A stretch of DNA of 64,000 nt from an uncultured Spirochaetota bacterium (GTDB taxonomy: Bacteria; Spirochaetota; UBA4802; UBA5550). The stretch is taken from positions 128,001 to 192,000 of the forward strand of contig CAWHAA010000007.1 of assembly GCA_963827275.1 (NCBI GenBank), read 5' to 3'. The translations under genes and the position numbers were made by a program. Positions 32,049 through 43,463 of the stretch are shown here, in pieces (the stretch's first letter is position 1; each line of letters opens with the position of its first letter). The notes beneath the pieces are model-generated. The model saw only the letters and a list, made by a program, of their open reading frames with translations. It was not told the origin of the DNA and made no database searches.

Positions 32049-32426
32049 ATGGCCAAGGACTACCACGAAAAAGACTATGATGATGAAGTATATGAAGACG
32101 GGTATTACGAAGAGCATTACGAGGAAGAGGAACTGGAAGACGAAGCCGAACTCATAGAGGAAGAGGAAGAGCTGGATGCCGGGGAAGAGGTCGCGGTAGG
32201 CGACCGCATCGACGATGAGGAAGCGGAAGAGGAGGCCGTCGTCGAGGGCGAGGAGGAGGTCAGCTGGGACGAAGAGGACCAGAAGAAGATGACCGTCAGT
32301 TACGCGTGCGAGGAATGCGACTACCGCTGGGACGATATCGTCATCAAGAAAAAAGGGGTGATCGAGGATGAGGAGCCCGATGTTATCTGCCCCATGTGCG
32401 GATCAATGAACGTTACCCTGATATGA
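32049..32426 (+). CDS. Highly acidic protein with C-terminal Zn ribbon
   Basis: E/D-rich N-terminus; CEEC and CPMC; stop overlaps uvrA start (ATGA). Confidence 0.75.
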
Positions 32427-35264
32427 GCGGTCGGTCCATTGTAATAAAGGGAGCACGAGAGCACAATCTAAAGAACATATCAGTAGAAATCCCGCGGGAC
32501 AGGCTCGTTGTCCTGACCGGGCTGTCCGGTTCCGGAAAATCATCACTTGCATTTGACACCATTTACGCCGAGGGGCAGCGCCGCTACGTGGAATCGCTTT
32601 CATCGTACGCCCGGCAGTTCCTCGGCCTCATGGAGAAGCCGGACGTCGATTACATCGACGGGCTTTCCCCCGCAATATCCATAGAACAGAAGACGACCCA
32701 CCGGAACCCCCGGTCCACGGTCGGCACCGTTACCGAGATCTACGATTACTTCAGGCTCCTCTACGCGCGTATCGGCGTGCCCCACTGCCACAAGTGCGGA
32801 AAAAAAATATCATCGCAGTCGCTCGACCAGATCGTCGAGAACCTGATGACCTACCCGCAGGGGACGCGGCTGCAGGTCCTGGCGCCGCTGGTGCGCGGCA
32901 GGAAGGGCGAGCATGCCGACAGGTTCGAGCAGGCGCGCAAGAAGGGCTTCGTGCGGGTGCGGGTCGACGGCGAGGTGAAGCGAGCTCGAGGAGGAGATCA
33001 AACTCGACAAGAACCACAAGCACACCGTGGAGATCATCGTCGACCGGATCGTCCTGAAGGACGGGGTGCGGCCGCGCTTGCCGAGTCGGTCGAGACCTCG
33101 ATGGAGCTCGCCGAGGGCCTGGTGACCGTGCTCATCGACGGCGCGGACGGGGGCGCGGCGGAGGAGCGGCTCTTTTCAACGAAGCTCTCCTGCACCGAGT
33201 GCGGCATCTCCATCCCGGAGCTGTCGCCGCGGATGTTTTCCTTCAACAGCCCCTACGGCGCCTGCCCTGCCTGCACGGGCCTGGGGTTCATCATGCAGTT
33301 CGACCCGAACCTCATCGTGTCGGACCCGGACCGGTCGCTCTATGACGGGGTGCTGGAGGTGTGGGGCAAGACCACGAGCTACTGGTACCTCGAGCAGATA
33401 AAGACCCTGGAAAAGAACCTCGGCTTTGACGCGCATACGCCCTGGAAGAAGCTCCCGAAAAAGATAAAGGACATCATCCTCTACGGATCGGAAGGGAAAG
33501 AAGATCGACTACAAGGTCAAGCGCGAGAACGCGGAGTACCGCTTCACCCGCGCCTTCGAGGGCGTGATCCCGAACCTGCACCGCCGCTACATGGAGACGA
33601 AGTCCGAGGACATGCGCATCTGGATGGAGGGCTACATGTCCAACAAGGTGTGCGAGGAGTGCGGGGGCAAGCGGCTGCGGCCGGAGAGCCTGGCCGTGAA
33701 GGTGGCGGGATACGGCATCGACGAGATCACGGCGCGGTCGATCGGCGCGGCGAACGAGCTCTTCCGGGACCTGGCGCTCACGGACACCGAGAAAAAGATC
33801 TCCGAGCAGATCATGAAGGAGATACGGGCCCGGCTCAAGTTCCTCAGCGACGTCGGCATCGATTACATCACGCTGGACCGGGCCGCCGGCACCCTCTCGG
33901 GCGGGGAGTCGCAGCGGATCCGGCTCGCCACCCAGATCGGGTCGAGCCTGACGGGGGTGCTCTATGTCCTGGACGAACCGAGCATCGGCCTCCACCAGCG
34001 CGACAACCGGAAGCTCCTGGCCACGCTGAAGCGCCTGCGCGACCTGGGAAACACGGTCATCGTGGTGGAGCACGACGAGGACACCATCCGCGAGGCCGAG
34101 TACGTCGTGGACCTGGGCCCGGGCGCGGGCCTTCACGGCGGCTACGTCGTGGCCGCGGGCACTCCCGCCGAGATCGAGGCGAACAGGGACTCCCTCACCG
34201 GCCGCTACCTGGCGGGCGAGTCCTTCATCCCGGTCCCGGGAAAGCGGCGGGAGCCGTCCGACTTCATCGAAATAAAAGGGGCGCGGGAGAATAACCTAAA
34301 GAAGATAGACGCGAAATTCCCGCTCGGCCTGTTCACCGCGGTGACCGGCGTGTCCGGCTCCGGGAAATCGACCCTCGTCATCGACATACTCTACAAGGCG
34401 CTGTCGTCCCTGGTGATGAAATCGAAGGAGTATCCGGGCGCGTTCGAAAAGTTCCTCGGCGTGGAGAAGATCGACAAGGTGATCGATATCGACCAGTCGC
34501 CCATCGGGCGGACGCCCCGTTCGAACCCCGCCACCTATACCGGCCTCTTCACGCCGATACGCGACCTCTTCACCAGGCTCCCCGAGTCGAAGCTCCGGGG
34601 CTACCAGCCGGGGCGCTTTTCCTTCAACGTGCCCGGCGGGCGCTGCGAATCGTGCTACGGGGACGGCGTCATCAAGATCGAGATGCACTTCCTGCCCGAC
34701 GTGTACATCACCTGCGAGGTGTGCAAGGGGAGGCGCTATAACCATGAGACGCTCGAGGTGCGCTACAAGGGAAAGAACATCTATGAGATACTGGAGATGA
34801 CCGTGGAGGAGGCGCTCGAATTCTTCAGCGCGGTCCCCGCGGTCAGGAGCAAGCTCGACACCCTGAACCGGGTGGGGCTCGGGTACATCAAGCTCGGGCA
34901 GCCCGCCACGACCCTGTCGGGGGGCGAGGCGCAGCGGGTGAAGCTGTCGGCCGAGCTGTCGAAGCGGGCGACCGGCAGGACCGTCTACCTGCTCGACGAG
35001 CCGACCACGGGCCTCCATTTCGCCGACATCCAGAAGCTGATCGACGTGCTCCAGTCGCTGGTGGACAAGGGGAACACCGTGATCGTCATCGAGCACAACC
35101 TGGACGTGATCAAGACCGCGGACTGGATCATCGACCTCGGGCCGGAGGGCGGCGACGCGGGAGGCCGCATCGTCGCGCAGGGCACGCCCGAGGAGGTCGC
35201 GCTCGTGAAGGAGTCGTACACGGGGCAGTTCCTCAAGAAGGCGCTTAAGAAAAAATCACGATAG
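32423..35264 (+). CDS. uvrA: Excinuclease ABC subunit A, frameshifts near 32980, 33077 and 33498
   Basis: [64 protein letters not shown], Zn fingers. Confidence 0.96.
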
Positions 35265-37075: not shown

Positions 37076-37366
37076 AATCAGCTCCGGAGTAAGTGGTTTC
37101 TTTCTTAACGTTAGTAAGAAAATCAGGTCCAGTCAAGGATATTTTGCCCGCCCGGCTGCGGCGGCTTGCATTGCCCGCAGTGGGCCGCCGCGGTCTTTTT
37201 TCTGTCACCGGGCGGCTAAATCCAAAAAAACTCTTGCATTATGTCTCATTTGTTTATATAAATGCAATAATTTATTATGTCGCTAAAAACGGGCCAAATT
37301 TTACACAATTCGCTGCCCGGTTGGGACGATAATATAACAGCCATGGGTTCTACAAACACATCTTTT

Positions 37367-39376
37367 ATGAAGCGATTCTGGGCGCCGGTACTTCTTGTGT
37401 CCGTTATCTGTTTCTATCCCCCGCTTGCCTTCTCCGAGATGAAGGACATGGTCAGGTTCGAGGTGGCGAAGAAACATTACCGCCAGGGGTGCGTGCATTT
37501 CAACGCCATGCGCTATCTCGCCTCTGTCGAGTTCTTCCGCAAGGCGGTGAACGCGTATCCCGACTACTATACCGCCCGCGACCACCTTGCCCGCGCCTAC
37601 AAGCTCGCGGGGTTCACCGACGCCGCGCTGAAGGAATGGGAAAGCCTGGCGGAAGCCTCCCCGGACAATGTCGCCGTGGTGTCGAAGATCGACGGGCTCC
37701 GCTTCCAGGACGCGGCGCGCGAGAGGCCGGCGGACGGCTCGGAGTACGTTGAGTACGAGGCGTATAAATCCTCGGCGTATAACCGGTTCCGCTTCAAAAA
37801 CCCCGTCGATATAGCCGTTGACACGGACAAGAACATCTATATCACTTCCTTTTCCGAGGGATCGCTGGTCAAACTTGACACCAACGGCCGCGGCATTTTT
37901 TCCATAAAGACGTCGATCTCCGGCACCCTCTACGGTGTTGACTGCCATGCGGGCAGGGTCGCCGTTTCGGATTTCAGGGGGGACCGGGTCTATATACTGG
38001 ACTCCGGCGGGAAGACCCTGCAGAGGTTCGGCTCGAGCGGCGCCGGGGAAGGGGAGTTCCACGGGCCCGAAGGCCTCTGCTTCAATGACAGGGGCGAGCT
38101 CTATGTCGTCGATTCGGGAAACAGCCGGGTGCAGAAGTTCGATGACACGGGAAAATTCATCCTCCAGTTCGGGAAGAAGGGCGAGTACGAGGGCGAGCTT
38201 TCGAAGCCCACTGACGTCGCCGCCCTCGGCGACAGGGTATACGTCACCGATACCGGCAACCGCCGGATAGCCTGTTTTGACGATTCGGGCAATTTCATAG
38301 AGAACATTACTGGCGATGCCCTCTACTCGCCGCGCGGGATTGCGCGCCACAAGGACCTGCTCCTCGTGTCTGACGAGAAGAAGGGGCCGCTCTTCTACCG
38401 TCCCGCGGACCGGTCGCTCTCCCCCTTCGAGCCGGGGTCGGGCCTGTCGCGCGCTGTGGCGTCCGCCGTGGACAGGGACGGATATATCTACTGCCTCGAC
38501 TATAACCGGGAATCGGTGGTGCTCTTCTCGCCGGTGCAGAAGCGCTATTCCAACATGAGCCTTGAAATCACCTCGGTTGACACGGCGAGCTTCCCGGTCG
38601 TGGCGTTTTACGTCAATGTCAGGAACAGGGACGGCAGCGCGGTCTACGGGCTCGATAAAACGAATTTTACGGTCACCGAGGACGGCGCCCTCATTACGAA
38701 TATCTACAGCGATTATTTAAAGCGCCTCATGCCGTCGGTGTCGATCTCTCTCTGCGTGGACCGCTCGGACAGGGCGGAGCAGTTCCACGGCGACCTGCCC
38801 TGGACCGCGGAATTCATTCTGCAGAAGATGCGGAAGAACGACTCGATCGAGGTGATAAATTTCAACCGTGAGCCGTGGGCCGGCACGAGGTTCGACTGGA
38901 GCCGCCGGAGGACCCTCCGGGCGCTCAGGGAGCGCGAGTACGGCGGGGGAAAAAATTTCGGCAAGGCGCTCTACGGCGCGATCGGCGACCTGGTCCCGCG
39001 CCTGAACCGCCGGGGCGTCGTCATGGTCACGGACGGGAGCGTCGATGAAAATTCCTTCCGGAGCTACACCCCGGAGAACATCATCCGCTACGCGAAATCG
39101 CACTATATCCCCATCTATATTGTCTCGTTCAGGGAGCCCGATCAGCAGCTCCGGGACATAGCCGAGGAGACGGGCGGCGCAGTGTTCAGGCCGAGGGACG
39201 TGGACAGCCTCAGGTCGATCTATTCGCGCATCAAGAATTCGGAGGAATACCGGTACGTGCTGGTATACTCGACCTTCAAGCTCAAGTCGTTCCGGGGTTG
39301 GTGGTCCGACGTAAAGATAGAGGCCGACCACAAGGGACAGAAGGGCGTTGAATGGGGCGGCTATTTCGTGCCGTAG
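37367..39376 (+). CDS. Secreted TPR + NHL-repeat beta-propeller + vWA-like protein
   Basis: Signal peptide; TPR; NHL repeats F.GP.G...LYVVDSGNSRVQKF, KPTDVA...VYVTDTGNRRI; C-terminal CVDRS...VTDG...AEETGG. Confidence 0.82.
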   Translation: MKRFWAPVLLVSVICFYPPLAFSEMKDMVRFEVAKKHYRQGCVHFNAMRYLASVEFFRKAVNAYPDYYTARDHLARAYKLAGFTDAALKEWESLAEASPDNVAVVSKIDGLRFQDAARERPADGSEYVEYEAYKSSAYNRFRFKNPVDIAVDTDKNIYITSFSEGSLVKLDTNGRGIFSIKTSISGTLYGVDCHAGRVAVSDFRGDRVYILDSGGKTLQRFGSSGAGEGEFHGPEGLCFNDRGELYVVDSGNSRVQKFDDTGKFILQFGKKGEYEGELSKPTDVAALGDRVYVTDTGNRRIACFDDSGNFIENITGDALYSPRGIARHKDLLLVSDEKKGPLFYRPADRSLSPFEPGSGLSRAVASAVDRDGYIYCLDYNRESVVLFSPVQKRYSNMSLEITSVDTASFPVVAFYVNVRNRDGSAVYGLDKTNFTVTEDGALITNIYSDYLKRLMPSVSISLCVDRSDRAEQFHGDLPWTAEFILQKMRKNDSIEVINFNREPWAGTRFDWSRRRTLRALREREYGGGKNFGKALYGAIGDLVPRLNRRGVVMVTDGSVDENSFRSYTPENIIRYAKSHYIPIYIVSFREPDQQLRDIAEETGGAVFRPRDVDSLRSIYSRIKNSEEYRYVLVYSTFKLKSFRGWWSDVKIEADHKGQKGVEWGGYFVP

Positions 39377-40051: not shown

Positions 40052-41103
40052 TTAAAATCCTATGTAAAATCCCCTGTTCTGCACCGCCAGCTCTTTCAGG
40101 AAGTCAACCGCCTCCGAGTCCTCCTGCTTCCTGAACTCGGTGCCGACCCCGACGGTAAATATCTTTTTATCCGACCTGTTCATGGTGCGTATCTTTTTGA
40201 GAAGGGCGTCCCTGGTAAGCTTCTTTTTCCTGAGTGGAATCCGGCTGGCCGTCGCTGAAGAGAATGATCCCCGCCGCGTCCCTGTAGGCGTCCTTCGTAA
40301 GAACGAATTCCATCGCGGTTTCCGTCGGCGTGTCGTGGTACGGCTGCAGGCAGGCGATCTTCTGGTAAAAGCCGTGCTTGTCGTTCTCTGAGAGGATATT
40401 CACCAGTTTCCCCTCGAAGTATCCGTACTTGTAGCACGTCAGCGCGGGGTTGTCGTACGCTTCGTCGCGCAGCTCGTAGCCGGCGCAGCGCTTATCGGGG
40501 CCGGGGCGTATGACGAACCCCGGGTATATCTCCCTGTTGATGTTTTCGGTGAATGCCGGGAAATAGACGATATCGATCCAGTACCGCTCGTCCATGGCGG
40601 CGATGAACATCTTCAGCGCGGCCTTCACCTGCGAGAGCCGGTCCTCCCTGTACTTGTTGTTCTCCGCGGCCATGCTCCCGGACAGGTCGATCACCATCAC
40701 GATTTTATGGGGTATCCTGAACGCGATCAGCTCGCTGGTGTCGTCGGTGGCCTTGAATAATCTCATTCTTTATCTCGTTGATTTTTTTTACGACGTTCGC
40801 GAATTGTAGCGTCGTCGAGTCGATTATCTTCGTGATGGACGAAATTTTCTCAATTGTCTGTGGATGTTCCGTTTTGTATTTTTGCAGTTCCTTCCGGGTC
40901 TCCGTCAGCTCGTTGGTCGTTTTCGCGAGCTCGTCAGATGCCGTCATCAGCTCCGATTTCACGTCCTGGCAGGCCGAAGATTCCACGCCGATCTTTTGCG
41001 TCAGCAGTATGAGCATCAATATCACGACCGCGCCGAGGGCGCCTGATATGGTGTCCAGCATGGAGATGTTAAAAGAATTTATTTCCCGGCCCGGACGTTT
41101 CAT
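40052..41103 (-). CDS. Single-pass membrane protein with ExbD/MotB-like anchor, coiled coil and vWA domain; frameshifts near 40761 and 40235
   Basis: FNISMLDTISGALGAVVILMLIL anchor; MIDAS IDLSGSM, DTPT, FSDGQP; restored C-terminus KIFTVGVG...FLKELAVQNRGFYIGF ending at TAA 40052. Confidence 0.78.
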
Positions 41104-41898
41104 AGACTTTTCCGCCTGTCAAAAACATGGAGCCTGTTTATCAGATTTGTCAGCACGTACTTCCCCGCCCTGTTCAGTACGTCCTCTTCGCCTCTCTGTA
41201 CGATGTTCCATATAAACACCAGTATTGCGCTCAGGACGAGGGCGACGATCGTCGTTCCGAACGCGAAGCCGAGGTCTGCCGTGATTTTTTTAAATATCAG
41301 GACTTTTTCGGCGCCGGCCCCCATGAATTTGTTGATGTCCATCCGTCCCAGGGCGTACGCAATACCGATAACGGTCCCCATGAAGCCGAAGGTCGGTATG
41401 GCCCATACGAGATACCTGATGATCGAATAATTAAGGTCCAGGCGGTGTATGCTCAGGTCGAGATTGCTGTTCAGCACGGAGATGGTATCGCTGATCGAGT
41501 GTGATTTTGAATACTGGATGATGCTGGTGTTTATCAGGTCGGGAAGAAACGCCTCGGCCCGCACGGCGGCATTGGACACGTTGATCCTGATCGCCTCGAT
41601 GTCCTCGTCGTTTTCCAGGAGCTTCCCCGTCTTCCTCGGGAAGGAACCCCGATTTTGTAAGGAAAACATTCTCTTCGTAGGTGCAGAGCCATCGTATCCA
41701 TAATTGCCCGAGGCCAATGAAGAATAAAAGGTGCATCAGGTTTTGCAGGGAAAACGGGTACACCGGCGATGATGTTTCGCCGATCATCATGTCTCCCCAG
41801 AACGTGCCTCCGATGAAAACGGTCAGAAGGGCTATGATGACGATGGCGACAACGACTGATATGCCGAGCGCGATCCAGTTTCTGTTGGAATAACTCAT
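41100..41898 (-). CDS. MotA/TolQ/ExbB proton-channel family protein, frameshift near 41625
   Basis: YLVWAIPTFGFMGTVIGI and LGFAFGTTIVAL; two N-terminal TM helices in the other frame; AGGAG RBS before ATG 41898; ATGA overlap with next gene. Confidence 0.85.
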
Positions 41899-41930
41899 GT
41901 GATAATCTCCTCTGCCGGGCTGATTGCCGG

Positions 41931-43463
41931 TTATTTTCTCGGAACACAATCCCCTTTTTCGTCCCTGGAATAGCCGTCCCTGCACAGACAGGTATTTTTG
42001 CGGTCCGACCAGACCTCGTTGCTCTTCGAGCATTTCTTGACGCACAGGTACTTGTTCGGCCCTTTCCAGTGCGGCACCTTCCGCTCGTCGGCCCTGCACG
42101 CGTCAGTACACGCGCCGAAGGAGTTGACGAGCTCGCAGGGTTCGCACCGGTTTGTCGCCCGGTTCAGCGAATACCCTTTTACGCACACGCAGGCGCTCCG
42201 GTCGGAGTTCCATTGCTCGTGCTCACGGCAGTCGCAGTAGCCGTATTCGTTTATTATACCGCGCCGCGCGGCGCATTCGGCCGTAAGCTTCTCCCGTTTC
42301 TTCTGCTGCACCGCGTGTTCCCGTTCCCAGGTCTCTTTCTGTTTTTTAAATTCCTCGAACTCCCTGTTGAGCTCCGCCTGCTTTTTCGCGACTATTTTTT
42401 CCTCGGTCTTCCTGGCTTCGCCCGCAAGCTTTTCCCGGATGACGGTTTTGGCGTCGTCGAGCTCCTTCTGCTTCTTGTTCAGCTCGGTCTCCCTGTCGTC
42501 GAGCTTCTTCTTCGCGATATTCAGCTGGTCCTTTGTCACGGTGAGCTCTGATCTCGTGCTTTCCAGCTCTTTTTTCACCCCGCCCAGCTGGTCCCTGGCG
42601 CTCAAGAGCTTCCCCCTCGTGTCGGAGAGCTCGTTCACGGCGGTGTCGAGGTTTTCCCTGGTGCCGGCAAGCTCTGACCTGGTCCCTTCCAGCTCGTTCC
42701 GCGCCTTCGCGAGGTTGTTCGATGCCGCGTTGAGCTCGTCCCGCGCCGCGCTCAGCCTCCCCTTCGTCGCGTCAAGCTCGCCCCTTGTTTTGTCGAGCTG
42801 CCCGGCGGTTTTATCGAGCTCGCCTTTCGTCGCGGCAAGACGGTCGCTCAACTCGCCGTACTTTTCGCGCGAGTCGTCAAGATCGTCCTGGAGGGACCTC
42901 TGCCGCGCGAGCATTTTTGAAACGCCGCCGAAGCTGTAGCGCGCCGCGATGCCCCAGTTGATGTCGAATTTCATCTTCGGCGTGATGACAAGGGCGGGGG
43001 CCGCGAAGAGCGACAGGGTCAGCGGGTATTTGGTAAAGGGCATGGACAACCCGATTGGGAGCCTGACATTGCTGTGAAAGTCCCTGTCCTGGTAGTCGTA
43101 TCCTACAAGCCCGCCGACGCCGTAGAAAAACCGGAGCTGCAGGTCCCGTGACCGGTAGAGGGTGAGGTGCTCGAAGAGCAGGTCGAGGGTAAAGACAAAG
43201 TCCCGCCTGATCGACGAACCGATGGTAAAATCTATCCCGAAAAAATCGACGATCCACCACCGCGCGTTTATGCCTGAGGGCATCCCCGCCGCGCCGCCGA
43301 TCTCGAAATTGCCTTTCTGTGAAAAGGGGTAGAGCGCCGCCATGCTGGCGGGCGCCCCCTGTCCGGGTGTTGCCTTTTTTTCATCCCCGTATGACGGCGT
43401 GACGTTCAGGCCGACAAGCATGACGGAAAGGATGATAATGCCGAGAGGTGGTTTCATGTGCAT
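41931..43463 (-). CDS. Secreted protein: predicted outer-membrane beta-barrel + heptad coiled coil + Cys-rich C-terminal domain
   Basis: Signal peptide; alternating aromatic/Gly strands ending WGIAARYSF; repeated heptads such as ELDKTAG/QLDKTRG/ELDATKG; 14 Cys in last ~115 aa. Confidence 0.72.
   Translation of the reverse strand: MHMKPPLGIIILSVMLVGLNVTPSYGDEKKATPGQGAPASMAALYPFSQKGNFEIGGAAGMPSGINARWWIVDFFGIDFTIGSSIRRDFVFTLDLLFEHLTLYRSRDLQLRFFYGVGGLVGYDYQDRDFHSNVRLPIGLSMPFTKYPLTLSLFAAPALVITPKMKFDINWGIAARYSFGGVSKMLARQRSLQDDLDDSREKYGELSDRLAATKGELDKTAGQLDKTRGELDATKGRLSAARDELNAASNNLAKARNELEGTRSELAGTRENLDTAVNELSDTRGKLLSARDQLGGVKKELESTRSELTVTKDQLNIAKKKLDDRETELNKKQKELDDAKTVIREKLAGEARKTEEKIVAKKQAELNREFEEFKKQKETWEREHAVQQKKREKLTAECAARRGIINEYGYCDCREHEQWNSDRSACVCVKGYSLNRATNRCEPCELVNSFGACTDACRADERKVPHWKGPNKYLCVKKCSKSNEVWSDRKNTCLCRDGYSRDEKGDCVPRK

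Follow-up and report, generated by a model that had tools for sequence, protein, structure and literature searches.

A TPH-vWA and TolQ-like motor pair with a probable outer-membrane partner in an uncultured spirochaete, and a tentative "inverted TolA" arrangement

To our knowledge, the characterised 5:2 trans-envelope motors follow a TonB/TolA-type layout, in which the transducer is anchored in the inner membrane (IM). In complexes of this A5B2 type, ion flow past an aspartate of the B subunit drives rotation or pulling, and an anchor or load is needed (PMC12505986 and PMC11761067, in the sections consulted). Motors composed of a TolQ-like channel and TPH-vWA proteins (vWA, von Willebrand factor A) have been predicted in silico (Williams-Jones et al., Mol Biol Evol 2025, PMC12204202); the consulted portions of that article describe mostly heterologous vWA pairs, hosts among Proteobacteria and Verrucomicrobia, and a proposed rotation inside the pentamer with force applied at the outer membrane (OM). 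The present analysis concerns three minus-strand genes, referred to here as the trio (Table 1), in a window of 64,000 nucleotides, that is, the whole stretch analysed, from contig CAWHAA010000007.1 of an uncultured Spirochaetota bacterium (genome G000). By their sequence features, genes 2 and 3 are members of the TPH-vWA and TolQ-like family, and such a pair was therefore already known in silico (PMC12204202, as consulted). Gene 1, which encodes an OM barrel, a coiled-coil rod and a Cys-rich domain, appears to be the new part and is probably the functional partner of this motor.

The features of the motor pair agree with this family assignment. Gene 2 matches the Pfam family MotA_ExbB above its cut-off (E 4e-10), bearing out the MotA/TolQ/ExbB channel that an earlier note, made from the sequence alone, had read in it. 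It is probably a four-transmembrane (four-TM) A subunit with intact homologues of ~260-280 aa, and its TM3 motif aligns with that of the solved MotA and PomA, though only at E 0.1-0.4, the MotA/PomA rows of the profile search against the PDB being weak throughout (E 0.1-0.6). Pore-lining Thr residues are a family trait (PMC12204202, in the part consulted), and by sequence gene 2 has conserved Thr at T175 and T215/T216; the latter two are present in 24/24 members of the gene-1-associated clade and lie outside the search patterns, but T175 was itself part of a search pattern. Gene 3, whose homologues measure 347-352 aa, scores above cut-off against Pfam VWA_2. Its N-terminal TM segment (residues 16-34) contains Asp17 (codon at 41055), invariant in 13/13 sequences and present in at least 90% of 74, and a stalk of constant length (119-124 aa in 21 spirochaete loci) leads to a C-terminal vWA domain with a complete metal ion-dependent adhesion site (MIDAS; DLSGS at 40688, T at 40331 and D at 40253). 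The MIDAS residues D139, S141, S143, T258 and D284 are invariant in 74/74. The TM Asp, stalk and complete-MIDAS vWA domain described earlier are all present. In the AlphaFold2 (AF2) model of gene 3 (mean pLDDT 75.6; residues 1-52 below 50), structural comparison with VIA recovered the vWA fold (Z 17.5, root-mean-square deviation (rmsd) 2.3 A over 158 residues). As in the published family, the tolQ-like gene adjoins the TM-Asp/vWA gene without a syntenic tolR, exbD or motB, and the gene 3 alignment contains no SHLS motif. On these grounds, genes 2 and 3 probably form a 5:2 (A5B2) ion-driven IM motor.

The trio departs from the published TPH-vWA motors in several respects. It has a single vWA gene, implying a homodimer, instead of the typical heterologous pair (each locus has one such gene, and each genome a single strong match); its vWA domain carries a Cys-bearing insert and it has a dedicated OM barrel-rod-Cys partner; and it occurs in Spirochaetota and in a second, small phylum. 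The insert, of ~40 aa, lies between MIDAS residues and is confined to the gene-1 clade. Members of this clade with a clean pattern match have a MIDAS spacing of 112-118; in the remaining loci, with 0-1 Cys, it is 54-94. The main text of PMC12204202, in the form consulted, contains no mention of spirochaetes, "coiled", "cysteine" or "kinase", and its spreadsheets may list further species. In our literature searches, made in a library that lacks most subscription papers, the trio did not come up, and neither did the OM rod partner, the single-vWA motor form or an occurrence in spirochaetes. The novelty proposed earlier does not extend to the motor pair, which had already been predicted (PMC12204202, as consulted).

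Comparison with other ion-driven systems places the trio outside each of them. It resembles TolQRA-TolB-Pal and ExbBD-TonB in the predicted coupling of an A5B2 motor across the periplasm to the OM and in having a long charged helix, and one gene 1 homologue gave a weak TolA match (E 0.02) that reflects composition only. Its spanning element, however, is anchored in the OM by a barrel and not in the IM by an SHLS helix, its B subunit bears a vWA domain in place of the ExbD/TolR domain, and G000 yielded no TolB_N match (the genome is 92% complete, and the control matched in just 2/14). Membership of the Ton/Tol systems was rejected: no ExbD/TolR domain and no adjacent SHLS-helix transducer are present, and no ExbD, TolR, TonB or TolA model of Pfam or NCBIfam matched the trio above cut-off. 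Neither a TonB/TolA gene beside the trio nor a peptidoglycan-binding domain in gene 3 was found, the vWA domain standing in its place, as had been stated before. Elsewhere in G000 lie flagellin genes, a stator-like gene pair and a separate TonB accompanied by ExbBD-like genes. MotAB and PomAB share with the trio the TM3 motif, the probable four-TM A subunit and a B subunit with a TM Asp. An OmpA-like peptidoglycan-binding domain is one of the traits that define stators (PMC12505986, in the section consulted); gene 3 does not have one and gene 2 falls far below the NCBIfam MotA cut-offs, so a flagellar stator was also rejected.

Gene 1 contains the signal peptide, barrel, coiled coil and 14-Cys domain attributed to it in the earlier note. 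Its AF2 model (12-sequence alignment, mean pLDDT 68.8, pTM 0.33) shows eight strands, a long helix broken at 346-348 and a beta-rich Cys domain. The barrel compares closely with the OprF barrel 4rlc (Z 15.5, rmsd 2.2 A over 120 residues, VIA), and the signal peptide, eight antiparallel strands and aromatic last strand that characterise OmpA-like barrels are all present. Stand-alone barrel homologues (n = 8, 152-196 aa) stop at the last strand with GxRYYF-type ending motifs. The cut-off of DUF3996 (PF13161), a family that we take to be linked to the small OM barrels of the Borrelia BB0405-BAPKO_0422 type, was passed by 5/5 stand-alone homologues scanned; the fused barrel of gene 1 gave no match, and a PF13161 scan of G000 was silent, as were its controls. 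The eight-stranded barrel is related to the stand-alone DUF3996 barrels and resembles OmpA/OprF, but in gene 1 it is fused to a rod of 150-250 aa and a Cys domain and not to the peptidoglycan-binding domain of OmpA. In even-stranded OM barrels both termini are periplasmic. Because the barrel is even-stranded and its stand-alone homologues end at the last strand, the rod and the Cys domain are predicted to be periplasmic, on the same side of the membrane as the vWA domain, in agreement with the original expectation.

The rod is built of heptads, with Leu at one position in 80% and Thr or Ala three residues on in 63%. Its length ranges from 176 to 232 aa in exact steps of seven in 17/19 full-length loci (those with a pattern match), and the same register fits 17 of the 19 measurable database proteins, two deviating; the rod of locus L194 is longer than this range. 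All length variation is confined to the part before a conserved Gly, which in 20/20 loci precedes the first Cys by exactly 49 residues, the 49-residue arm being fixed. With a helical coiled-coil rise of ~0.15 nm per residue, the proximal rod by itself (127-183 aa) measures ~19-27 nm. Gene 1 has exactly 14 Cys, all within residues 397-506, and these are invariant in 12/12 sequences. No family could be assigned to the Cys domain: the TIL match was below cut-off (E 0.004), the likeness to EGF arrays was weak, the Foldseek rows to Pfs25/Pvs25 were weak (E 0.12), and the top Atlas score, 0.82, is a lead only. The full-length family is small, with ~11 clusters at 50% identity among 1.84 billion representatives.

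Two variants of gene 1 were observed in passing. The 817-aa protein P0101 has a tandem barrel-rod-barrel-rod-Cys order; it is a single case that may be a read-through artefact, and insertion of both barrels would require the first rod to depart from the periplasmic face of the OM and come back to it. Homologues of non-spirochaete type (L166, L167, L172 and P0100-P0104) have one Cys just ahead of the barrel, and all of these except P0104 (L166, L167, L172 and P0100-P0103) have another just past it; the Cys pair flanking the barrel is likely to be a disulfide that ties the barrel ends on one face.

Whether gene 1 belongs with the motor was addressed through its distribution. In the neighbourhood survey, strong matches to genes 1 and 2 were adjacent and in the same order in the same 12/60 relatives, with mostly different flanks (gene 1 being split in G024), so that the arrangement is not a chance one. 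Across 401 Spirochaetota genomes, a strong gene 3 was found in 17 and the Cys domain in 16, with both in 16; in the lone discordant genome, G379, the contig is cut at 1,914 bp. All Spirochaetota carriers belong to one order, within which presence is patchy. Among 13 loci from metagenomes, gene 2 comes next in 10, two end at a contig edge and one (L194) has only a short remainder of contig, without gene 2. When the best 80 of 320 related channel loci were inspected, gene 1 stood beside 20, modules with forkhead-associated (FHA) proteins beside 51 and neither beside 9. In a quick tree, the 20 gene-1 channels form a well-supported clade together with one cut contig and three loci of the second phylum (L067, L069 and L070), where the motor pair has no adjacent gene 1. 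The corresponding genomes (G409-G411) nevertheless encode a full barrel-rod-16-Cys orthologue of gene 1 on another contig: the same 3/39 genomes of that phylum carry both parts on different contigs (3/101 in another search set; sequences of these three genomes were included in later query alignments). The record behind L070 is titled Anaeromyxobacter dehalogenans, but its ~26-30% GC and its grouping with L067/L069 in the 39-genome phylum make the title look wrong. Searches of 10 outgroup genomes, whose channels are the next closest, and of G017 turned up no full gene 1, and in no genome searched for both did gene 1 occur without the motor pair.

The earlier note would have been refuted had gene 1 never co-occurred with the motor pair; the survey found the two together, both in adjacent and in unlinked form. 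Since the second phylum retains the two parts unlinked, operon hitch-hiking does not explain their co-occurrence, and these distributions make gene 1 a probable functional partner of the motor. The competing view, in which gene 1 would be a passenger in the same operon or lineage as the motor but would work separately, as an OM-peptidoglycan strut, is very unlikely. Linkage by itself would explain the spirochaete co-occurrence and the three unlinked cases may represent one clade, but gene 1 is kept in trans there, and a family this small was never seen without the pair where both were searched.

Another concern is the integrity of the copy in the window, which relative to three congeneric genomes contains three frameshifts, one in gene 2 and two in gene 3, each of one extra base. 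The base at 40236 is absent from contigs of 4/4 runs, and those at 40759 and 41629 are each absent from contigs of 3/4, with no contig of the remaining run covering the site; these are Illumina-type short-read contigs from four runs of four studies, mostly 95-99% identical and from other strains. Because the insertions are missing from near-identical contigs and 12 relatives have unbroken copies of genes 2 and 3, the frameshifts, which the earlier note had described as obscuring two of the genes, are very likely assembly errors. A decayed pseudogene operon retains next to no probability and is largely refuted by this comparison: although three frameshifts are present and the comparison runs represent different strains that have not been tied to the source sample, each frameshift is a +1 insertion missing from near-identical contigs, every key residue is intact, and the uvrA gene of the same window is also split. 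The latter, a uvrA-like gene at 32396-35264 (named from its translation), is divided into two overlapping open reading frames (ORFs), a further sign of assembly indels.

Table 1. Coordinates, in the window, of the three genes, the parts of gene 1 and the extra bases
Feature	Position	Strand	Description or basis
Gene 1	43463-41931	minus	510 aa; signal peptide, OM barrel, heptad rod, Gly hinge, charged arm and 14-Cys domain
Gene 2	41898-41100	minus	~265 aa; MotA/TolQ/ExbB-type channel, A subunit (predicted)
Gene 3	41103-40052	minus	349 aa; B subunit (predicted): TM with Asp17, helical stalk, vWA with full MIDAS
Gene 1, 8-stranded OmpA/OprF-like OM beta-barrel, residues 52-178	42930..43310	minus	AF2 and VIA structural comparison
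Gene 1, proximal heptad coiled-coil rod, residues 179-347, ~25 nm	42423..42929	minus	AF2 and heptad pattern
Gene 1, Gly348 helix break and fixed 49-residue E/K/R/Q-rich arm	42276..42422	minus	alignment and AF2
Gene 1, 14-Cys disulfide-rich domain, residues 397-510	41934..42275	minus	Cys count and alignment
Extra bases	near 41629 (gene 2), 40759 and 40236 (gene 3)	minus-strand genes	single-base insertions

The mechanism that we favour is an "inverted TolA", in which gene 1 is the OM-anchored load through which the motor tensions the envelope; this is a tentative reading that falls a little short of an even chance. Gene 1 is the simplest load for a motor that has no peptidoglycan-binding domain and no adjacent TonB/TolA. 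The two-copy axle formed by gene 3 would end in metal-binding vWA heads above a five-copy channel ring, and the gene 1 barrel in the OM would hang its rod across the periplasm. The variable proximal rod (~19-27 nm) would serve as a periplasmic ruler; beyond the conserved Gly, the fixed arm would fold back and hold the Cys domain near the IM, beside the vWA heads and the periplasmic loops of the channel. Proton flow past Asp17 and the Thr ring would turn the ring against the axle and load the rod, which the motor would grip and pull, tensioning or spacing the membranes. The components of this proposal differ in strength. Envelope tensioning as the motor output is an evenly balanced proposition, and direct contact of gene 1 with the motor through the MIDAS is possible but somewhat doubtful. 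More doubtful still is the complete picture of a three-protein machine of reversed polarity, whose OM-anchored transducer consists of a heptad ruler and a disulfide-rich foot on a hinge, held by the integrin-like MIDAS grip of a rotary 5:2 motor.

Several observations weigh against this reading, and the first concerns length. Rod (176-232 aa) and stalk (119-124 aa) placed end to end in a straight line would span ~45-55 nm, whereas the measurable OM-IM range in Leptospira interrogans, which may not match the host, extends up to 25 nm (PMC13547282, in the part consulted). Therefore, the rod would have to fold back or lie obliquely, or the periplasm would have to be wider. We infer a fold-back at the Gly, placing the Cys foot beside the vWA heads, because the proximal rod alone fits a periplasm. 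The shorter rods (152-180 aa) and longer axle stalks (142-162 aa) of G409-G411 weakly favour additive lengths instead. No acidic residue of the Cys domain, as a candidate MIDAS ligand, is invariant across both phyla, E481 being invariant only within 34 spirochaete-type sequences. The patchy presence (3 of 14-16 in the genus) disfavours an essential envelope role. The three second-phylum genomes are probably kin and would then represent one or two independent events. In L194, the remaining 405 bp of contig after gene 1 contain no gene 2, and the split gene 1 of G024 counts in the same direction. Finally, in distance correlations over 19 loci, which are noisy and whose pairs are not independent, the Cys domain follows the vWA domain (rho 0.64) less closely than it follows the channel (0.82) or than the barrel follows the vWA domain (0.88), and the grip of the vWA on the Cys-rich tip proposed in the earlier note is not singled out.

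The last of these points leads to another possibility, namely a gene 1 that acts as a TonB/TolA-type transducer docked on the periplasmic loop of the channel ring, with the vWA heads binding some other periplasmic ligand. The better agreement of the Cys domain with the channel speaks for it, as does a periplasmic-loop insert of gene 2 (residues 187-202) that is conserved only in the gene-1 clade, with G193, K198 and F202 each in 24/24, and a Cys domain that is net basic or neutral in 23/23 sequences checked. The vWA domain, however, also gained a clade-specific Cys-bearing insert between its MIDAS residues, the loci showed no conserved gene beyond the three, and the correlations carry the limits just given; docking on the channel is quite unlikely, if less so than the passenger view.

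Envelope-damage sensing by a Zorya- or MotB-like logic is the strongest competitor to the OM-anchored load, though still unlikely. Gene 1 would here be a fixed anchor that replaces the peptidoglycan-binding domain, and movement of the membranes towards or away from each other would open the channel through the tether, the signal of envelope damage being an ion leak or ring rotation upon phage or predator attack or osmotic stress. The trio is patchily distributed; 51 of the best 80 channel loci lie with FHA proteins, mostly together with Ser/Thr kinases and PP2C phosphatases; gene 2 matches ZorA2 weakly (E 3e-4), reflecting a MotA-like membrane core shared with ZorAB; and a distant pair in G017 has transposase-like ORFs, a kinase and a WYL protein as neighbours. 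Against these stand the composition of the trio, which includes no effector, kinase or FHA gene, the short length of gene 2, which at 259-279 aa is without a long tail of the ZorA type, flanks that are varied and mostly of housekeeping type, and a GC content that broadly follows that of the host, from ~0.3 to 0.59. Zorya itself was rejected as an identity, given no long cytoplasmic ZorA tail, no peptidoglycan-binding ZorB domain and no effector genes.

A minimal surface-motility or adhesion machine, in which the motor would drag the OM barrel along the cell in the manner of the Myxococcus Agl-Glt system, was also weighed. Agl-Glt comprises at least 17 proteins, including a surface vWA adhesin and IM transducers, and offers the same classes of parts, i.e., a TolQ-like motor, OM barrels and a vWA protein (PMC11761067, in the sections consulted); the second-phylum hosts, moreover, are rich in EGF-like Cys proteins. 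The trio differs in having three proteins and a vWA domain on the motor axle: its barrel loops are short, no surface adhesin or cytoplasmic platform is encoded, the vWA domain sits on the IM subunit, and G000 already has its flagellins and separate stator-like gene pair. The CglB model gave at most 11.8-16.3 bits against a cut-off of 200, and only three genes are conserved, no genome-wide Glt search having been made. This alternative has very little probability, and surface motility and phage sensing, both suggested originally as outputs, found little direct support.

Should the complete picture of a machine of reversed polarity prove correct, the trio would be the smallest complete motor-plus-load system of its class, gene 1 would be the first named ligand of a TPH-vWA motor, and the system would actively set periplasmic width in place of Tol-Pal or Lpp. 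An OM-anchored transducer would invert the TonB/TolA layout. TPH-vWA motors are widespread, as the 320 related channel loci illustrate, and the trio names a candidate load for their vWA heads; its three-gene size makes this candidate testable in a surrogate even though the hosts are uncultured.

The compact layout described earlier is present in full: the three minus-strand genes are tightly packed, with 32 bp between gene 1 and the ATG of gene 2 (41898) and an ATGA overlap of the gene 2 stop with the gene 3 start at 41103-41100. A scan of the trio region for promoters and terminators gave nothing decisive. As to expression, the listing of near-identical DNA named no RNA data set; one RNA-labelled run contains three near-identical pieces over genes 1-2, but these were found with this stretch and are not counted as evidence. 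The host genome comprises 4.13 Mb in 11 contigs. Close homologues come from records titled Spirochaetota or uncultured Leptospirales, and near-identical DNA was found in metagenomes from bioreactors, wastewater, freshwater, manure and sediment, four runs of which supplied the contigs of the frameshift comparison. The opposite strand encodes, two genes away, a 699-aa TPR-NHL-vWA protein (37277-39376, plus strand); a gene of this type is near the trio in just 1/14 relative loci (L036), which places it outside the module.

Some outgroup motors deserve mention in their own right. The nearest outgroup channels (L072-L127, the 51 of 80 loci) lie in clusters of FHA, Ser/Thr kinase and PP2C genes, and the gene-1 clade has no such phospho-module. 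B subunits with the same FNxSxLD transpore motif but no evident vWA head occur at L072:8803-9543, L073:8803-9471, L123:962-1594 and L101:8648-10177. Those of L072, L073 and L123 end in a short C-terminal domain, for which Pfam scans of L072 and L073 gave coiled-coil matches only; presumably this domain resembles YfaP/DUF2135, and we take the head of L101 to be Sel1-like repeats. The axle head looks modular. The distant pair of G017 (L046, G017:C57, 7713-10961) consists of a channel and a single vWA gene without gene 1, followed by the kinase-like ORF and the WYL protein, and its context near transposase-like ORFs appears defence-like. At L047 (G039:C64, 8188-10383), a MotA-like gene is followed by two single-TM ORFs without vWA.

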